A stretch of DNA of 44,740 nucleotides from Escherichia phage McMelon. Numbering within the stretch: position 1 is the first letter of the stretch; every line of letters starts with the position of its first letter. A program made the position numbers and the translations under genes. The notes below the pieces were generated by a model. The model saw nothing but the letters and a program-made list of their open reading frames with translations, made no database searches and was not told the origin of the DNA. Below are positions 5,218 to 43,864 of the stretch, one piece after another. The DNA lies in the sequence record OR896838.1. One strand, written 5' to 3'.

Positions 5218-5246
5218 TTTTATGTCCTCGTTGTTGGTGTGCAACC

Positions 5247-5275
5247 AATATATGCAACCAATACGCGGATTGCAA
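5247..5275 (-). promoter_or_regulatory. sigma70-like promoter (TTGCAA-17-TATATT) for 4453..5217
   Basis: Minus-strand reading: TTGCAA, 17-nt spacer, TATATT, then GGTTGCACACCAACA and RBS; same -10 and downstream 21-mer as the promoter at 39364..39392. Confidence 0.45.
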
Positions 5276-10514: not shown

Positions 10515-10828
10515 TTGAGGCGGCGCGACGCTTTTATGGCCCGCCGCCACCCTCCGAAGATTTAGCCGCAAGTTTATGGGGCGCGGCCCCCGAAGATGTT
10601 TGTCCACCTGTTGCGCTGTGGCCCGACAACGCGAAGGTAGTCGCAGTCTTCACAGATTGCTCCACGCAATGGCGCACCGGATTTGGTGGCGCATACGGCA
10701 TCGACTACGGCGTGCTGGAGTGGTTATTTAAGATGCACGGTATCGAAAACGAACAGCGCGCGTTTAAAGATATCAAGCTAATGGAACGAATAGCGCTTGA
10801 TGAGATGGCGCAGCAGAACCCCGCATAA
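10505..10828 (+). CDS. tail assembly chaperone frameshift extension (lambda T-like; made as fusion with 10152..10510 by -1 frameshift)
   Basis: Heptamer A AAA AAC at 10505..10511 followed by TAA; the -1 frame stays open about 105 codons to TAA at 10826..10828; canonical G/GT arrangement. Confidence 0.5.
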   Translation, partial: KKLIEAARRFYGPPPPSEDLAASLWGAAPEDVCPPVALWPDNAKVVAVFTDCSTQWRTGFGGAYGIDYGVLEWLFKMHGIENEQRAFKDIKLMERIALDEMAQQNPA

Positions 10829-11140
10829 TGAAGCGGGACGTCCCGCTTTGTCCCGCCCTGTAAAACCGCATATCTAATCACTTTCATTGCATAAACTCAA
10901 AGCGGGACAGGCGGGACGTCCCGTTTTGTCCCACCCATGAAATGTGCATACCTATTCGAATTTCGTGCATAAAACAAGCGGGACAGAAAGCGGGACAGAC
11001 AAGGGGCGGGACAAAGCGGGACAGCACCCCGTCCCCGCCAGTGCTGCCGCGGTTTTCAGCCGATCGGGACAAGCGGGACAAAGCCCAGTCTTTCAGACTA
11101 GACGGGGGTCAACGGCCCCCCTCGTCTGAGACTGAATAAG
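10829..11140. repeat. GCGGGACA iteron / palindrome array ending in GC-rich hairpin (copy A)
   Basis: At least 10 copies of GCGGGAC or its complement, including perfect palindrome GCGGGACGTCCCGC (10833..10846); terminal hairpin GACGGGGGTCAACGGCCCCCCTCGTC; about 150 bp nearly identical to 39030..39210. Confidence 0.7.
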
Positions 11141-11157: not shown

Positions 11158-11166
11158 TGATACAAT
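11158..11166 (+). promoter_or_regulatory. candidate extended -10 promoter (TGaTACAAT) upstream of tape measure gene
   Basis: TGnTACAAT-type element about 37 nt upstream of the TMP start; no good -35. Confidence 0.3.
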
Positions 11167-24756: not shown

Positions 24757-24785
24757 AATATAGTTGGTTGCATTATTGGTTGCAA
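24757..24785 (-). promoter_or_regulatory. sigma70-like promoter (TTGCAA-17-TATATT)
   Basis: Minus-strand TTGCAA, 17-nt spacer containing AATGCAACCAA, then TATATT; same family as 5247, 26426 and 39364. Confidence 0.45.
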
Positions 24786-26425: not shown

Positions 26426-26454
26426 AATATAATGCAACCAATATGATTATGCAA
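26426..26454 (-). promoter_or_regulatory. sigma70-like promoter (TTGCAT-17-TATATT)
   Basis: Minus-strand TTGCAT, 17-nt spacer containing ATTGGTTGCAT, TATATT. Confidence 0.45.
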
Positions 26455-26459
26455 CCAAT

Positions 26460-29390: not shown

Positions 29391-29669
29391 CTACGCGACC
29401 AATTCAGCAACCAATAAATCGCAATCGGCTATGTTGTCAATAACGCGAACGTCAGCCCCGCGGCGGGCCATTCGCTCATGTTCTCGCACCTGGTGCGGCT
29501 TCGGTTTTCCACCGGGGCGCTTCACTTCGACGAATACTACGATGCCGTTGATGATAATAATCAGGTCGGGCGCACCTGCGCGCCCCTCCCATGCCAGTTT
29601 GCGGCAGAATCCGCCAACCTCTTTCACCCGTCGCATCAGGTGACTTTGTATCTTGCCTTCTGGAGTCAT
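29391..29669 (-). CDS. VRR-NUC domain nuclease
   Basis: 92 aa; PD-(D/E)XK-like core GAPDLIIII...VEVK typical of VRR-NUC. Confidence 0.65.
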   Translation of the reverse strand: MTPEGKIQSHLMRRVKEVGGFCRKLAWEGRAGAPDLIIIINGIVVFVEVKRPGGKPKPHQVREHERMARRGADVRVIDNIADCDLLVAELVA

Positions 29670-33158: not shown

Positions 33159-33248
33159 TTTCCAATTCCTCATTTTCACATGTATCGGGGTTATTGGAGG
33201 CCACCCCGTTCGGCTTGGTTGCCAATTTACTTGGTTGCGCTTAAGCGG

Positions 33249-36281: not shown

Positions 36282-36611
36282 ATGAATGTAAACGACGCAA
36301 TCGAAATGTTAACGAAGACTGTTTGCAGTGAGACAAGCCGGTCGTGGGCATACACCGATGCCGTGGGGGCTGTGTTATTTGAAATCGAACGACTGCGGCT
36401 TACCGAAAAAGAATTGCGCGCCAGGCTGGAACTACTCAACGGTACAGCAGCAAGCAAGCTGCAAAAACACAATGAAGAAATGGAAGAATACAAAAAGCAG
36501 GTTATCCGTTTGCGCGCCGAGGGTAAATCATGGGCGATGATTGCCGAGTTGACCGGGATTAATCAGAGCACAGTGCGCTCCTGGGTACGCAATAATAAAA
36601 CTTCTAAGTAA
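36282..36611 (+). CDS. HTH DNA-binding protein (putative transcriptional regulator)
   Basis: 109 aa; helical N-terminus; C-terminal helix-turn-helix SWAMIAELTGINQSTVRSWV; first gene of rightward operon. Confidence 0.6.
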   Translation: MNVNDAIEMLTKTVCSETSRSWAYTDAVGAVLFEIERLRLTEKELRARLELLNGTAASKLQKHNEEMEEYKKQVIRLRAEGKSWAMIAELTGINQSTVRSWVRNNKTSK

Positions 36612-36621
36612 GGCCACGGCA

Positions 36622-38886
36622 ATGAGCTTGATTAAATTCGCTGTAACAAAACCCGCTAAAAAAGGCGAAAAAGCCAGGGCGGAAAACTTCCAGATGACGA
36701 CCGATGAGTTTTTCGAATTTATCAAAGATGCGAAAGAAATCTCCTCGGTGCATATCAACAAGACGGAAGATAGAGCCGAGTATGCGCGCCGCAAGCGTAA
36801 GGCCGATGGCATCGTGGCGTATACCAGTGACGGATTGCGTCGTAAGACCAGTGCGGTGGACCGCTCGATCCTGTTCTTTGATATTGACCGCACCGACACC
36901 CGCACCCTGCGCCGCTGCCGTAAGGCGTTCATCGACGCGGGACTGGAACATGTATTTCACACCACAACCGGCGACCGCCACCCGCTGAAAGGTGGCACGC
37001 GTTGCGCTCGTTTCCTGGTGCTCACCGACAAGCCTGTACCGGCGGAAGACCTGGGCCGCGTACAGTATGCACTGTTACACCAACTGGGCCTGTCAGATGT
37101 GGACTTCGATGATTGTACGAAAGACACAAACCGCCTTATGTACCTGCCACACCAGCAGTCCGTTGTTAAGTGTCACTACGGCAAACGTGCCCGCGTCCGT
37201 CGTCTGCTTCGCCTGGCGGATAAGCTGGGAGTGGAAAAAGAGGAAGTACGACGCGAACTGACCCAGGGCGATGACGGCGTTGCGGACGGTATTCTGGATT
37301 GGTGCTTCCAGGCAGGATTCGAACCGCTGTCGTCCGGTCGTGGCTATGAAGTGCCATGCCCGAACGAACATCTGCACAGTGGTGAAGGGTCCACCGCTAT
37401 CATGGTTAAGGATGGCGAGATCCGTTTCAAGTGTATGCACACCGGCAACGAGTGCTGTTCCGAACTGAACAGACACCAGCACCTGGCGCTACGTCTTATC
37501 GGGATCCCGGACCACTTGAACGTCGAACCGCACAACATGTCACGTAAGCAAATCGCCGCCATCCTTCCGGGACTGGACGATGAGGAAGTGGAATCGTGCT
37601 ATGAACATATCGTTGATGCGGTCGGAGACGGCGACGAGTACGGCGGATGTACAGATGCAGACCTGGACAACGAGCCGGTTGCGCTGTTCAGTAAGCACGA
37701 CCCGATCATCGAGGGGCTGATTAACTTCAAATCGACCTGGTATCTTGCTGGCGGGTCGAACATCGGTAAATCGTTCTACGTGCTGGGCCAGATGGCGTCA
37801 GTATCTGCCGGTATTCCGTTCGGCGGCGCGAAGGTCGTCCAGTGCCACAACTTCTATTTCGACGCGGAAGGTGGTGAAGCCTCCAACCAGCGTAAGGAAG
37901 CATTGCAGATCAAATATGAGCACGACCTGGACAAGCTGCACATTATCGATCTGCAGTCACGCGGCTGGGATATCACCAGCAAATCCGGCTTGCGTGAAGT
38001 TATCAGCTTTATCAACCGCACCGCTAACGGCGAGCCGGTTGGCCTGGTGGCGTTCGACTCACTCAACCAGACTGTCGCGTTGCGGTCAGCCGATGCTAAA
38101 CCGTTCGACGAGAACAACGCCAGCGATATGGGCGAAGTGGTCAAAGCGCTGAAGGCTATTGCGGAAAACACAGGCGGCAGTGCGGGAGTCATCCACCACC
38201 CGGCGAAAGGTGCAAACGGCAGCAGATCTCCCCGCGGGTCCGGCGCGCTGCATGGTGCTGTCGATTCCGCGTTCTTCCTGGAGCAACCGGACGACAATCA
38301 GCCGGGCCAATTGAACCTGTACCATGAGAAGGCACGTAACGGCATCAAGCAAGCGCCGCGCGGCTTCGTTCTGCTTAAGTGCAAGGTTAAGGTGGATCTC
38401 CGCAAGTCAGAGGCGTTCGAATCGCACCAGTCCACCAGCACCGGGCCTGATTTCGGTGATGTGGTTGCAGGATGGGACGTCAAGCCGATCGCATCAACGC
38501 CACGCGACGAGACTCTTTACCTCGTACCTGTCGCCCTGGCACCGTTCGCTATTGAGCAGGCGAAGGCCGCGGGTAAGGCAGCAGTTAAGGAAGAGAACCC
38601 CGCAGGACCTCGCAACGAAAAAGAGAAAGTGCTTTATGCGGCGCTGGAAAAACTGATGGAAGATAACCCGGACCATACCGGATTCAGTAAATCGGCAATC
38701 GTCCGCCAGGCTGGACTTGCGAAAGGTGGCACATCGACGAAGGCAATAGACGATATGGTCGAGCGCGGCGTGCTCGGTTTCTATACAGATCCGCACACCG
38801 GGGCCATCTATGGGTCATCGAATATCGTCATCAAAACGAATATACCCATCACGCTTTCGGCGACCGACGATGATTTAAAAGATTAA
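36622..38886 (+). CDS. DNA primase-polymerase (AEP-type) fused to P-loop ATPase/helicase domain
   Basis: 754 aa; N-terminal acidic motif ILFFDIDR (DxD) typical of prim-pol; central Walker A GGSNIGKS. Confidence 0.8.
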   Translation: MSLIKFAVTKPAKKGEKARAENFQMTTDEFFEFIKDAKEISSVHINKTEDRAEYARRKRKADGIVAYTSDGLRRKTSAVDRSILFFDIDRTDTRTLRRCRKAFIDAGLEHVFHTTTGDRHPLKGGTRCARFLVLTDKPVPAEDLGRVQYALLHQLGLSDVDFDDCTKDTNRLMYLPHQQSVVKCHYGKRARVRRLLRLADKLGVEKEEVRRELTQGDDGVADGILDWCFQAGFEPLSSGRGYEVPCPNEHLHSGEGSTAIMVKDGEIRFKCMHTGNECCSELNRHQHLALRLIGIPDHLNVEPHNMSRKQIAAILPGLDDEEVESCYEHIVDAVGDGDEYGGCTDADLDNEPVALFSKHDPIIEGLINFKSTWYLAGGSNIGKSFYVLGQMASVSAGIPFGGAKVVQCHNFYFDAEGGEASNQRKEALQIKYEHDLDKLHIIDLQSRGWDITSKSGLREVISFINRTANGEPVGLVAFDSLNQTVALRSADAKPFDENNASDMGEVVKALKAIAENTGGSAGVIHHPAKGANGSRSPRGSGALHGAVDSAFFLEQPDDNQPGQLNLYHEKARNGIKQAPRGFVLLKCKVKVDLRKSEAFESHQSTSTGPDFGDVVAGWDVKPIASTPRDETLYLVPVALAPFAIEQAKAAGKAAVKEENPAGPRNEKEKVLYAALEKLMEDNPDHTGFSKSAIVRQAGLAKGGTSTKAIDDMVERGVLGFYTDPHTGAIYGSSNIVIKTNIPITLSATDDDLKD

Positions 38887-38961
38887 ATTCTGCGCGCATT
38901 GGTTGCCGATATGGGAATTCCCATATCGTTAGAAGATTAAATTTTGCGCGCATTGGTTGCC
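38876..38961. repeat. direct repeat - 22-bp perfect palindrome - direct repeat structure (candidate origin/operator)
   Basis: 31-bp direct repeats A(A/G)AAGATTAAATT(C/T)TGCGCGCATTGGTTGCC at 38876..38907 and 38930..38961 flanking CGATATGGGAATTCCCATATCG (38907..38928); third ATTGGTTGCC at 38986..38996. Confidence 0.6.
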
Positions 38962-39029
38962 ATTTTGAGTGTTTTTATCTGGTCGTATTGGTTGCCGTGT
39001 AGTGTAAATATAGTGAATAGTTATGCAGT

Positions 39030-39210
39030 TTTATTGCATAAAGCAAGCGGGACAAAAAGCGGGACAAACAAGGGGCGGGACAAAGCGGGACAGCACCCCT
39101 GTCCCGCCCCGGATGACGCGGCTTCCAGAGGAGCGGGACAGGCGGGACAACTCCCAGTCTTTCAGACTAGACGGGGGTCAATGGCCCCCCTCGTCTGAGA
39201 CTGAATAAAA
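39030..39210. repeat. GCGGGACA iteron / palindrome array ending in GC-rich hairpin (copy B)
   Basis: Near-identical to 10970..11140: same order of GCGGGACA units, GGCGGGAC...GTCCCGCC inverted repeat and terminal hairpin (loop differs by one base). Confidence 0.7.
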
Positions 39211-39363
39211 TCCGGGTATTGCAAAATACACGGCAGCATGATGCGAATTGCGGTCGTCGATGAACTAGGCAACCAATGCGGGTTGTATTATGCTGAGTGA
39301 AAAATGCGGTTTGCAGTCACAGCAGATAGCGATCAGCTTTTTCATGCGCGTGATTAATATTGG

Positions 39364-39392
39364 TTGCACCCACCCTGGCACCCTGCTATATT
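39364..39392 (+). promoter_or_regulatory. sigma70-like promoter (TTGCAC-17-TATATT) for rightward early ORFs
   Basis: TTGCAC, 17-nt spacer, TATATT, then GGTTGCACACCAACA and RBS GAGGAC; -10 plus downstream 21-mer identical to the 5247..5275 promoter. Confidence 0.5.
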
Positions 39393-39420
39393 GGTTGCAC
39401 ACCAACATGAGGACCGAACA

Positions 39421-39732
39421 ATGCGAGCATTAATCTGGAATTACACAATGGCGGTGGCGAAGCTGAACGAAGCGAAGGCACTAAACGGCAACGTAGACGA
39501 CGCGCGCCAGTTAGCCGCGCTGGCACACCAAGCTATAATGTGCGCCTTCGACGAAATGGACGCCTGTCTGGAAGGGCCAGAGTCCGGGCCGCTGCGCAAG
39601 GCAGTCCACGAATATGCGCTTGCGTTCTCCGATGAGCGCCTGGCGTATCGCTTCGGGATCGGCGAGACGGCAGTGACAAACGTCGCCCGGATTAAAGCCC
39701 AGCGCGAACTATTTGCCCAGCTTGCGAAATAA
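39421..39732 (+). CDS. hypothetical early protein
   Basis: 104 aa from ATG with GAGGA RBS; no domain recognised. Confidence 0.5.
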   Translation: MRALIWNYTMAVAKLNEAKALNGNVDDARQLAALAHQAIMCAFDEMDACLEGPESGPLRKAVHEYALAFSDERLAYRFGIGETAVTNVARIKAQRELFAQLAK

Positions 39733-39741
39733 GGGGTCAAA

Positions 39742-40011
39742 ATGGGCCGTAGACGAGCTAAACAGCTTTCGTGGCATATTCCCCTACATTGCATACGAAT
39801 ATGGGCTGAGAATGCGAATGAGGGGGATTCTGTATTCTGGTGCTATCGCGATGATGTGAAGCCGTTAACGCAGACTCGCTACTTGCACCAGTTCGCAGCA
39901 CAACACGATTTCAGGGTGCGGACTTCCTTGCAACCAATGGGAATACGTATTACATTACGCCGGAAGCCCGCCATTGAGCGGGTAGGCAAACACTGGAGAC
40001 TGAGCAAATGA
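39742..40011 (+). CDS. hypothetical protein
   Basis: 89 aa, basic, RBS AGGGG. Confidence 0.45.
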   Translation: MGRRRAKQLSWHIPLHCIRIWAENANEGDSVFWCYRDDVKPLTQTRYLHQFAAQHDFRVRTSLQPMGIRITLRRKPAIERVGKHWRLSK

Positions 40012-42520: not shown

Positions 42521-42550
42521 TTGACTCGCAACCAACATAGGGGCCATACT
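42521..42550 (+). promoter_or_regulatory. candidate promoter (TTGACT-18-CATACT)
   Basis: Directly after terminator; followed by GCAACCAATCAAC motif and strong RBS. Confidence 0.35.
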
Positions 42551-42579
42551 GCAACCAATCAACGAGAGGAGTAATCAAG

Positions 42580-42721: not shown

Positions 42722-43864
42722 ATGCACCCGCAAACTAAAATCACCGACGAGCAATTGATCGCTGAAGTGCAATCAGGCACTACCCCGAAAGATATTGCGA
42801 AGAAGTACGGTCTTTCCCTCCGAAATGTCTACATGCGAAAAGCCCGCCTGTCGAAGAAAGGGATTGGTCACGGCAACGATGCCGTAATCCGTAAGCGCGT
42901 TGCCGATGGCTTCGGTGTTAAGCGCGTATCCGCCCTGGTGCGCGGCAATGGCGAAGAGGTCATGTCGTGGGTTATCACTGAGCAGGACAAGGAGCGCCAG
43001 CTTGAAGCAATGCGCGCCGTTGTCGAGGGTATGAACAGCGAAATCACACCGGCAGCGCCCGTAAACGCCCCGCCAGTACCGGTCCATGCACTGGACCTAC
43101 TCAACCTGTACACCGTGTCCGACTTCCACCTGGGCATGTTGGCCTGGGGCGAGGAGACTGGCGAAGACTGGGATATGGCGATTGCAGAAGACCTGTTTTA
43201 CCGCTGGTTTGTCGAAGCCTTCGCACGCGCACCGGACGCAGGCACTGCCGTAATTAATATCCTCGGTGATATGGCGCATTTTGATAGCCTTGATGCGGTC
43301 ACCCCAGCCAGCGGGCACGTACTGGACGCGGATACCCGCTACCAGAAACTGGTCCGCTACATGATTCGCATGGTGCGCAACGTGGTAGACCTGGCACTGC
43401 AAAAACACCACAAAGTCAAACTTCTAATCGTCCAGGGGAATCATGACGAATCGGGCATGATTTGGCTGGCTGAAATGTTCAACACCCTGTACGAGAACGA
43501 GCCGCGCGTCGATGTGGATACGTCCCCGGACGTATACAAAATGGTGCAACACGGCAAGACCACGCTGTTCTTCCACCACGGGCACAAAGCGCGCTTCGAT
43601 GCTATTGAAACCGTAATGATTTCCAAATTCAGACAGGCGTTCGGGTCCAGCGAGTACAGCTACGCGCATGTAGGCCACTTGCACCACCAGAAGATTGTAG
43701 AATCCCGCAACATGATTGTTGAACAACACCGGACCCTCGCCGCGAAAGACGCATATGCCAGCCGCGGCGGTTGGATGTCCGGTCGTAGCGCCAACGTAAT
43801 AACCTACAGCGCCAACTACGGCGAAGTAGCGCGCTTAACCATTAGCCCGGAAATGTTGAAATGA
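42722..43864 (+). CDS. HTH domain fused to calcineurin-like metallophosphoesterase
   Basis: 380 aa; N-terminal HTH (TPKDIAKKYGLSLRNVYMRKA); phosphoesterase motifs DFHLG, GDMAHFD, GNHDE, HHGH, GHLHH. Confidence 0.6.
   Translation: MHPQTKITDEQLIAEVQSGTTPKDIAKKYGLSLRNVYMRKARLSKKGIGHGNDAVIRKRVADGFGVKRVSALVRGNGEEVMSWVITEQDKERQLEAMRAVVEGMNSEITPAAPVNAPPVPVHALDLLNLYTVSDFHLGMLAWGEETGEDWDMAIAEDLFYRWFVEAFARAPDAGTAVINILGDMAHFDSLDAVTPASGHVLDADTRYQKLVRYMIRMVRNVVDLALQKHHKVKLLIVQGNHDESGMIWLAEMFNTLYENEPRVDVDTSPDVYKMVQHGKTTLFFHHGHKARFDAIETVMISKFRQAFGSSEYSYAHVGHLHHQKIVESRNMIVEQHRTLAAKDAYASRGGWMSGRSANVITYSANYGEVARLTISPEMLK

Follow-up and report, generated by a model that had tools for sequence, protein, structure and literature searches.

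A candidate iteron-type replication origin beside the primase-helicase gene of Escherichia phage McMelon and its second copy among the tail genes

The window analysed here is the whole 44,740-nucleotide (nt) sequence of Escherichia phage McMelon (OR896838.1), which in length and gene order corresponds to a complete genome from the genus Dhillonvirus (HK578/SO-1-like coliphages). McMelon is a complete, virulent-type siphovirus with structural, polymerase and lysis genes of its own. Downstream of the gene for a 754-amino-acid (aa) primase-helicase lies a compact array of short repeats and hairpins, termed copy B; a second version, copy A, lies between two tail genes. A preliminary description, made from the sequence without database searches, had noted the pair and proposed either a functional cis element or a substrate for recombination. 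Comparison with related and unrelated viruses supports the first of these proposals and makes it specific: the element appears to be a protein-binding array of iterons with hairpins, tied to the primase-helicase gene, and its most likely function is as a replication origin, not as an RNA structure.

Architecture and conservation of the two copies

The primase-helicase gene stops at 38886, and the iterons of copy B, which span 39047-39149, begin 160 nt further on (Table 1). The spacer between the two iteron sets has 65-70% GC. The inverted repeat at 39072-39110 folds as DNA with -16 kcal/mol (z = -4.0), the terminal hairpin, seen in RNA and DNA folds, forms equally well on both strands (-13.4 and -14.1 kcal/mol), and the 186-nt element as a whole reaches -75 kcal/mol (z = -3.4). 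Neither terminal hairpin, in copy A or in copy B, is followed by a T-run, the next letters being GAATAAAATCC and CGGATGACG. The iteron GCGGGACA occurs 17 times in the 44,740 nt, compared with 2.0 ± 1.3 times in 100 shuffles of the sequence, none of which reached 17; the element is therefore not a chance product of low complexity. Two spacing variants of the last two direct iterons, CGGGACAGGCGGGACA and CGGGACAGCGGGACA, are both found in A and B copies of relatives. Nearer to the gene, 21 nt past the primase-helicase stop codon, lies a perfect 22-bp palindrome, CGATATGGGAATTCCCATATCG (38907-38928; DNA fold -8.2 kcal/mol, z = -4.6), likewise without a T-run.

Table 1. Positions of the features discussed, numbered along the window (aa, amino acids; HTH, helix-turn-helix).
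Feature	Position	Strand	Remarks
Primase-helicase gene (754 aa), proposed initiator	36622-38886	+	RepA-family AAA_25 core, aa 357-531; C-terminal domain, ~aa 665-722, predicted winged helix
Copy B	39021-39203		same unit order as copy A
AT-rich stretch, candidate unwinding region	38995-39046		27-37% GC (GC profile)
Motif GTGAATAGTTATGCAG	39013-39028		present at the same place in Cornellvirus
Inverted repeat TTATGCA / TGCATAA	39021-39027 / 39035-39041		inside the AT-rich stretch
Four direct GCGGGACA iterons	39047-39054, 39059-39066, 39075-39082, 39085-39092	+	spacings 12, 16 and 10 nt
Inverted repeat GGGGCGGGAC / GTCCCGCCCC	39072-39081 / 39101-39110		contains direct iterons 3 and 4 plus the inverted one
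Single inverted GCGGGACA iteron	39100-39107	-	
Copy-B-specific GC-rich spacer GGATGACGCGGCTTCCAGAGGAG	39111-39132		counterpart in copy A, 11039-11064
Two more direct GCGGGACA iterons	39133-39140, 39142-39149	+	absent from the list in the preliminary description
Terminal 49-nt hairpin of copy B	39155-39203		18 Watson-Crick pairs, two 2-nt bulges in the 5' arm, G5/C5 tip, 7-8-nt loop
Copy A core	10966-11134	+	between tail-chaperone and tape-measure genes
Copy A units	10966 (TGCATAA); 10978, 10990, 11006, 11016 (GCGGGACA)		
Copy A imperfect inverted arm	11031-11039		
Copy A-specific spacer	11039-11064		
Copy A later iterons, (T/G)CGGGACA	11064, 11073		
Copy A terminal hairpin	11086-11134		
Extra units of region A, two palindromic iteron blocks	10833-10935		GCGGGAC/GTCCCGC, 10833-10846; CGGGAC/GTCCCG, 10912-10923; plus GTCCC(G/A) copies
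Virion genes	1 to ~23.2 kb	+	
Replication genes	23.2-36.3 kb	-	
Third gene block	36.3 kb to end	+	first the small HTH protein gene, then the primase-helicase gene
Small HTH protein gene	36282-36611	+	just upstream of the primase-helicase gene; an HTH gene is likewise placed in Cornellvirus
ATTGGTTGC sites	5241-5262, 26434-26459, 29395-29415, 39269, 42528-42559	-	
ATTGGTTGC sites	24763-24783, 33214-33238, 38898-38995, 39359-39398	+	

Copy A repeats this arrangement. As had been proposed, copy B keeps the unit order of copy A, every listed unit being located in both, and the two stand on the same strand about 28 kb apart (28,069 bp between the hairpins). Aligned with MAFFT, they show 91% mean column identity over 212 columns. 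The differences had been given as one loop base and a central stretch of 40 nt; the loop base holds (TCAATGG versus TCAACGG), whereas the divergent centre is smaller, about 22-26 nt (39111-39132 versus 11039-11064). Region A proved larger than first stated: its first extra iteron lies only 5 nt past the stop of the tail-chaperone frame (10826-10828), and each of the extra palindromic blocks is followed by an AT-rich stretch with (T)GCATAA. An extended -10-like sequence, TGATACAAT (11158-11166), is separated by 24 nt from the copy-A hairpin upstream and by 37 nt from the start codon of the tape-measure gene downstream, and CGCTGATACAAT is kept in all aligned A copies; TGATACAAT is a possible internal promoter for the tail genes. 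Copy B had been placed between the primase gene and an early promoter at 39364. Its position 3' of the gene stands, but the promoter amounts to a weak consensus match (TTGCAC-17-TATATT).

A megablast of positions 38000-40000 returned 158 phage records at 80-95% identity, nearly all of them Escherichia or Shigella Dhillonvirus (HK578, SSL-2009a, Sodalis phage SO-1 and others). The element is present in all 158, and in at least two places in every record except a partial one, which has it in a single place. Copies A and B occupy the same two positions across records and never occur elsewhere; the genes on either side of copy A are those for the tail chaperone and the tape measure in every Dhillonvirus record examined. 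For a closer comparison within the genus, 29 distinct copies from 15 genomes were aligned. The iterons and a 27-nt block, GGCGGGACAAAGCGGGACAGCACCCC, are almost invariant, and the centre (~25 nt) is fixed for each copy type (2.1 differences between A copies, 3.7 between B copies and 10.9 between A and B). Conservation of the iterons and hairpin stems exceeds that of the coding DNA on either side.

The 3' third of the element shows a different pattern. Polymorphisms there are common to A and B, and copies differ less within a genome than between genomes (7.7 versus 9.5 differences; permutation p = 0.05), which suggests occasional gene conversion. These observations lend weak support to the earlier idea of a recombination substrate; against it, the centre is strictly A- or B-specific and no rearranged genome was found among the relatives examined. 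The same polymorphisms, in two inverted-repeat-rich copies on one strand, would also suit a selfish or mobile repeat resembling a miniature inverted-repeat transposable element, or a recombination hotspot without a phage function. This reading is very improbable given its two fixed positions in all records save the partial one, the lack of terminal inverted repeats and target duplications, its absence from 5,426 E. coli genomes and 72,556 plasmids, and the conservation of iterons and stems beyond that of neighbouring genes. One linear record, that of phage vB_EcoS_PNS1 (locus L216 in our numbering; MK138527.1), has its start and its end within region A, and the same ~130 nt occur at each of them. 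The extra (third or fourth) copy that this creates is an artefact of the overlapping record ends, which are probably an assembly break at the repeat and not a true genome terminus.

Two features of the inverted repeats bear on whether the element works as DNA or as RNA. In the terminal hairpin, the 18 pairs are constant across the 29 copies save for two single-sequence disruptions, and the loop takes at least eight forms; an 18-mer from the stem was found only in Dhillonvirus contigs in IMG/VR. In the AT-rich stretch, the 7-nt loop between TTATGCA and TGCATAA reads, among B copies of different phages, either GTTTTAT or its exact reverse complement, ATAAAAC, with the arms kept; this flip is a small inversion at the DNA level between the arms of the inverted repeat. 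A conserved stem under a variable loop, the strong fold of the 186-nt element, the orientation of both copies along the transcription of the flanking plus-strand genes and the label 'terminator' given to the first inverted repeat in the record of vB_Eco_CS16 could all be accommodated by an element acting as RNA, be it a terminator, an antiterminator, a processing site, an mRNA-stabilising structure or a small RNA gene. We nevertheless consider this improbable. No U-tract follows either hairpin, and a terminator scan of 38600-39800 was empty; no Rfam 15 family matched at the gathering threshold, the permissive mode giving only sub-threshold, chance-level matches to microRNA hairpins. All 18 stem pairs are Watson-Crick with no G-U pair, and the fold is as good on the complementary strand. 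Compensatory changes are absent: in the first inverted repeat the iteron-bearing 5' arm is invariant, whereas the 3' arm drifts in A copies without compensation. Stem covariation had been suggested as a check, but because the stems are invariant the test (RNAalifold and pair counts on the 29 copies) is uninformative within the genus. An RNA model also leaves unexplained the flipped loop and the helically phased short repeats that occur in both orientations and, as described below, change with helicase lineage.

Both copies contain an open reading frame (ORF) in McMelon (39023-39208, 61 aa; 10942-11139, 65 aa), and the annotation of several GenBank records includes a hypothetical protein at this place. 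Open frames are expected here by chance, since GCGGGACA holds no stop codon in any plus-strand frame. We rejected a coding role, which is barely credible, because neither frame is kept across the 29 copies: frames are broken in several A and B copies, and in phages with the flipped loop the 61-aa ORF runs from start to stop within three codons (ATG CAA TAA). The predicted product, moreover, is a low-complexity translation of the iterons.

The GenBank record of Sodalis phage SO-1 names a 'region A' before the tape-measure gene and a 'region B' after the helicase/primase gene, and describes them as mutually similar repeat regions with direct, inverted and palindromic repeats, function not established. 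A literature search covering the motif and Dhillonvirus origins, repeats and transcriptomes found no description of the element. It has thus been noticed in one record without explanation, and an origin of this familiar type is not yet described for this phage group.

Helicase genes and iteron arrays in other viruses

IMG/VR was scanned for two copies of GCGGGACA 10 nt apart, and clusters of at least five CGGGAC were kept. Besides the Dhillonvirus copies, the scan recovered 61 unrelated viral loci with clusters of 5-17 CGGGAC, and the only protein consistently common to McMelon and these loci is the helicase core (aa 356-590). In 27 distinct loci in which a helicase could be recognised, its ORF ends at the cluster, usually with 0-12 nt between the stop codon and the first iteron, and the iterons recur every 10-11 bp. 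Direct copies come first in 25 of the 27 and inverted copies last in 18, and the hairpin formed in McMelon by an iteron, a GC-rich loop and an inverted iteron recurs in unrelated phages with the same iteron. The rest of these loci varies: the N-terminal primase domains differ (Toprim/zinc-finger, Prim-Pol or other), as do the neighbouring genes, and no common small DNA-binding gene lies beside the helicase. One uncultivated CGGGACA locus (L009), compared with known phages by BLAST, had no match at the DNA level.

Loci chosen by their motif might be a biased sample, and the reverse test removed this bias by picking 76 distinct viral loci solely for helicase similarity. In 60 of the 76, the most frequent 6-mer occurred at least five times in the 380 nt at the helicase stop codon, compared with 4 of 76 for a control inside the gene and 6 of 71 for a window 700 nt further downstream. 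The repeated motif is lineage-specific, with CGGGACA, CGGACA, GGGGACA, TGGGACA, CGTGACA, CGT(A/C/G)AC, AAGTGAG, AAGTGGG, GCGGAAG and ATGTGAAA among the forms found. Roseobacter phage CRP-701, for example, carries CGGACA iterons; its helicase and that of a CGGGACA-type contig are 58% identical.

A word-indexed homologue search with the C-terminal 153 aa of the McMelon protein found only two proteins, one of which led to the sister genus Cornellvirus. The helicase-primase of the Cornellvirus Salmonella phage FSL SP-031 is 44% identical overall and 33% in the C-terminal domain, and directly after its gene stands one homologous element with the same unit order and GTGAATAGTTATGCAG, with GGGGAGA as iteron and a GC-rich terminal hairpin whose sequence differs from that of Dhillonvirus. 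No second copy was found near the tape-measure gene of FSL SP-031. As the single Cornellvirus element occupies the same place, the copy-B position is ancestral and copy A is a Dhillonvirus-specific duplication that has kept the iterons of B.

The most telling variation was found in E. coli chromosomes. Sixteen loci are chromosomal islands beside tRNA-Pro, with int, an HTH regulator, icd, a 'helicase RepA family protein', ssb, capsid and terS genes, which is the gene content of capsid-forming phage-inducible chromosomal islands (PICIs). Their arrays flank an AT-rich centre in the canonical manner. In the C-terminal helix of the island helicase, MK[N/H]FRRWL, Asn goes with AAAAGTGAG and His with AAAAGTGGG, each in 8 of 8 islands; the pairing is seen in two helix backgrounds, also between helices that differ at that residue only. 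This switch of one residue with one base argues that the C-terminal helix reads the downstream iterons in this helicase family. Further pairs, each from one or two loci (among L136-L215), link the helices ARMAFKRA, ARTAFMRA and ARQAFKRA with CGTAAC, CGTCAC and CGTGAC, respectively, and hint that recognition follows a readable code. Of 5,426 complete E. coli genomes, 1,211 carry RepA-family helicase genes of capsid-forming PICI-like islands (loci L175-L215; L217 is NZ_CP015244.1, 2455614-2470912).

These comparisons also bear on whether the iterons are transcriptional operators. Bound by the primase-helicase or by the small HTH protein, the two arrays could control the genes after 39421 and the tape-measure and tail genes after 11203, as an early/late switch or by autoregulation, without any origin function. 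Each copy does occupy a long intergenic gap, with a co-oriented transcription unit just downstream; copy A is followed by the conserved extended -10-like sequence, copy B is surrounded by the weak promoter-like match and six copies of ATTGGTTGC, and the HTH gene keeps its place upstream of the helicase gene in Cornellvirus too. Even so, we judge a purely regulatory role unlikely, because it leaves the helicase gene as constant neighbour unexplained. That gene is the sole shared neighbour of the CGGGACA array in at least 27 unrelated loci whose flanking genes are not conserved; the array sits at the helicase stop codon family-wide whatever gene comes next; and the iteron covaries with a residue in the helicase's own C-terminal helix. 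In PICIs, furthermore, this organisation is a proven origin (PMC6092414). The two roles are compatible, and an operator role may coexist with origin function.

The motif ATTGGTTGC is a second repeat family in the genome, with 18 exact copies and 27 with at most one mismatch compared with 13 ± 3.9 expected. Its copies are usually paired, 12-31 bp apart, and mostly near ORF boundaries, and six of them flank copy B. In Cornellvirus, TGTTGGCTG and TTGTTGCCG stand at equivalent places, and ATTGGTTGC is probably a phage-wide promoter or operator motif. A promoter scan reported none in 38600-39800. As to other regulators, the SO-1 record labels the 380-aa protein encoded at 42722-43864 a 'putative transcriptional regulator', yet it gave only matches to calcineurin-like phosphoesterases (Metallophos), below Pfam cut-offs, and no DNA-binding domain was detected in it.

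A candidate origin and its initiator

Pfam recognised a single domain in the primase-helicase, AAA_25 (E = 3e-19), and the protein matched PHROG 3228, 'replicative helicase-primase'. A sequence search of the PDB gave only a marginal match, with RSF1010 RepA as the nearest solved structure. In an AlphaFold2 model of aa 630-754, a unit of three helices and a beta-hairpin reached a predicted local distance difference test score (pLDDT) of 70-78, and the top Foldseek matches of this C-terminal model were all winged-helix proteins (MarR family, ORC2 winged helix), with E values of at least 0.011. The C-terminal domain is accordingly a predicted winged helix.

Both the anatomy of the element and the family-wide rule match the replicon of PICIs and Staphylococcus aureus pathogenicity islands (SaPIs), and we therefore read copy B as an origin and the primase-helicase as its self-loading initiator. 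From the sequence comparisons, we put the probability that copy B is a phage replication origin of iteron type, tied to the RepA-family primase-helicase, at roughly two in three; that the element is an initiator-binding iteron array we hold with greater confidence. The binding, melting and priming that we infer would proceed as follows. The initiator, most likely by means of its C-terminal winged helix, would bind the GCGGGACA iterons, of which six are direct and one is inverted, with partial phasing at 9-12 bp. Binding would distort the DNA, so that the AT-rich inverted repeat (38995-39046), the two GC-rich inverted repeats or both open or extrude. The helicase would then assemble on the single strand and the fused primase start synthesis. 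Copy A, matched to the same initiator, may be a second origin or a second high-affinity initiator site serving as a cis enhancer or a fork barrier, in the manner proposed for SPP1 oriR or P4 crr, and the genus-specific terminal hairpin may be a start signal for the primase.

A number of observations weigh against this proposal. Some concern the layout, which departs from the PICI canon: the iteron sets flank a GC-rich rather than an AT-rich spacer, only one iteron is inverted (four direct, one inverted, two direct), and the array lies 160 nt past the stop codon and not directly at it. The terminal hairpin, although perfectly conserved, has no assigned role. Others concern the protein. Overall confidence in the model of aa 630-754 is low (mean pLDDT 55), and the C-terminus of the 754-aa protein does not significantly resemble those of other CGGGACA-type helicases (hmmsearch E = 0.3, hhalign E = 0.03), which leaves the iteron that it shares with them unexplained. 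In a general test that related C-terminal identity to iteron class, with core identity held fixed, the signal was weak (0.23 versus 0.18), and more distant AAA_25 helicase genes (Jerseyvirus, mycobacteriophage Maskar and Vibrio phage 1247) have no obvious downstream iterons. Finally, cumulative GC skew follows gene orientation, so an origin cannot be placed by skew, and the literature searched holds no experiment or replication-profile data for any Dhillonvirus.

A more far-reaching scenario can be sketched, although we regard it as doubtful in its entirety. In a two-site Dhillonvirus system, copy B would fire, and copy A in the tail operon would act as an initiator-bound programmed barrier or second origin that times the switch to concatemers or couples replication to the late genes, with the 49-nt hairpin as start signal for the unusual N-terminal primase domain. 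More broadly, a large family of lytic phages, as yet undescribed and using RepA-type self-loading primase-helicases, would have as its native replicon the rep-ori arrangement considered 'PICI-only', with a one-residue/one-base code that could be read from sequence.

The proposal supplies a candidate origin and a named initiator for Dhillonvirus and Cornellvirus, two genera with no origin described so far and common phages of E. coli and Salmonella that are used in therapy and in studies of defence systems. It also extends the PICI-type rep-ori layout, built on a RepA-family helicase, to a genus of virulent phages and to numerous uncultivated viral contigs, which bears on the ancestry of satellite replicons. 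The covariation of Asn/His with A/G offers a handle for predicting or re-engineering origin specificity.

Comparison with known replicons

Plasmid RSF1010 combines, at oriV, a RepA-family helicase, iterons and the hairpins of ssiA and ssiB, which are start signals for its primase. Its iteron binder RepC, its helicase and its primase are three proteins, and the ssi sites lie on opposite strands. The ssi hairpins are a possible model for the Dhillonvirus-specific terminal hairpin, by type and not by hairpin sequence.

The alpha protein of satellite phage P4 is a primase-helicase with a C-terminal winged-helix domain that binds the origin, and octamer iterons (TGTTCACC) lie in ori and in crr, both needed in cis. 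McMelon likewise has a fused primase-helicase and two separate iteron regions in one genome. The P4 regions, 4.5 kb apart, are not copies of each other and the alpha helicase belongs to superfamily 3 (SF3), whereas copies A and B of McMelon are copies and its helicase is of the RepA family.

Bacillus phage SPP1 has an origin, oriL, in its initiator gene and a second, oriR, in a gap that interrupts the late genes; the same protein binds both, and oriR is proposed to stall forks and switch replication from theta to sigma mode for concatemer synthesis (PMC6316719). Like McMelon, it is a siphovirus of ~44 kb with two similarly organised regions of repeats and AT-rich DNA, of which the first is found at the initiator gene and the second in a gap between genes of the virion block. 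The conserved second copy in the tail operon parallels oriR, and McMelon may thus offer a second system for the control of replication mode by a duplicated origin; that one initiator would serve copies A and B, as in SPP1, is suggested solely by their identical iterons. The machinery differs. SPP1 uses the origin-binding protein gp38, the loader gp39 and the DnaB-type helicase gp40, and no such trio was recognised in McMelon, whose candidate is a single fused RepA-family primase-helicase. Moreover, oriL lies inside gene 38 whereas copy B follows the initiator gene, and the two share no sequence similarity.

The closest parallel is with PICIs and SaPIs, in which iterons immediately 3' of rep are bound by the C-terminal winged helix of the initiator, a helicase that is sometimes fused to a primase, and the rep-ori segment drives plasmid replication (Ubeda, Penades and colleagues; PMC6092414, PMC9371898). 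McMelon shares with them an array 3' of the gene for a proposed initiator helicase, direct and inverted iterons, an adjoining AT-rich region and lineage-dependent specificity, and the capsid-forming PICI-like islands of E. coli carry a RepA-family helicase homologous to the McMelon helicase core, followed by an iteron array. There are also departures. The PICI canon has two opposed iteron sets around an AT-rich centre, whereas the AT-rich stretch of McMelon lies upstream of the array; SaPI Rep proteins are SF3/MCM-like and the McMelon helicase is AAA_25 (RepA family); and a PICI is a satellite island with int, a repressor and dependence on a helper, whereas McMelon is a virulent 45-kb siphovirus. 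Unlike a PICI, finally, McMelon has a conserved 49-nt hairpin appended to the module and carries the whole module twice. Given these departures from the canon, we class the element as one that would work like a PICI-type rep-ori, and not as a PICI.

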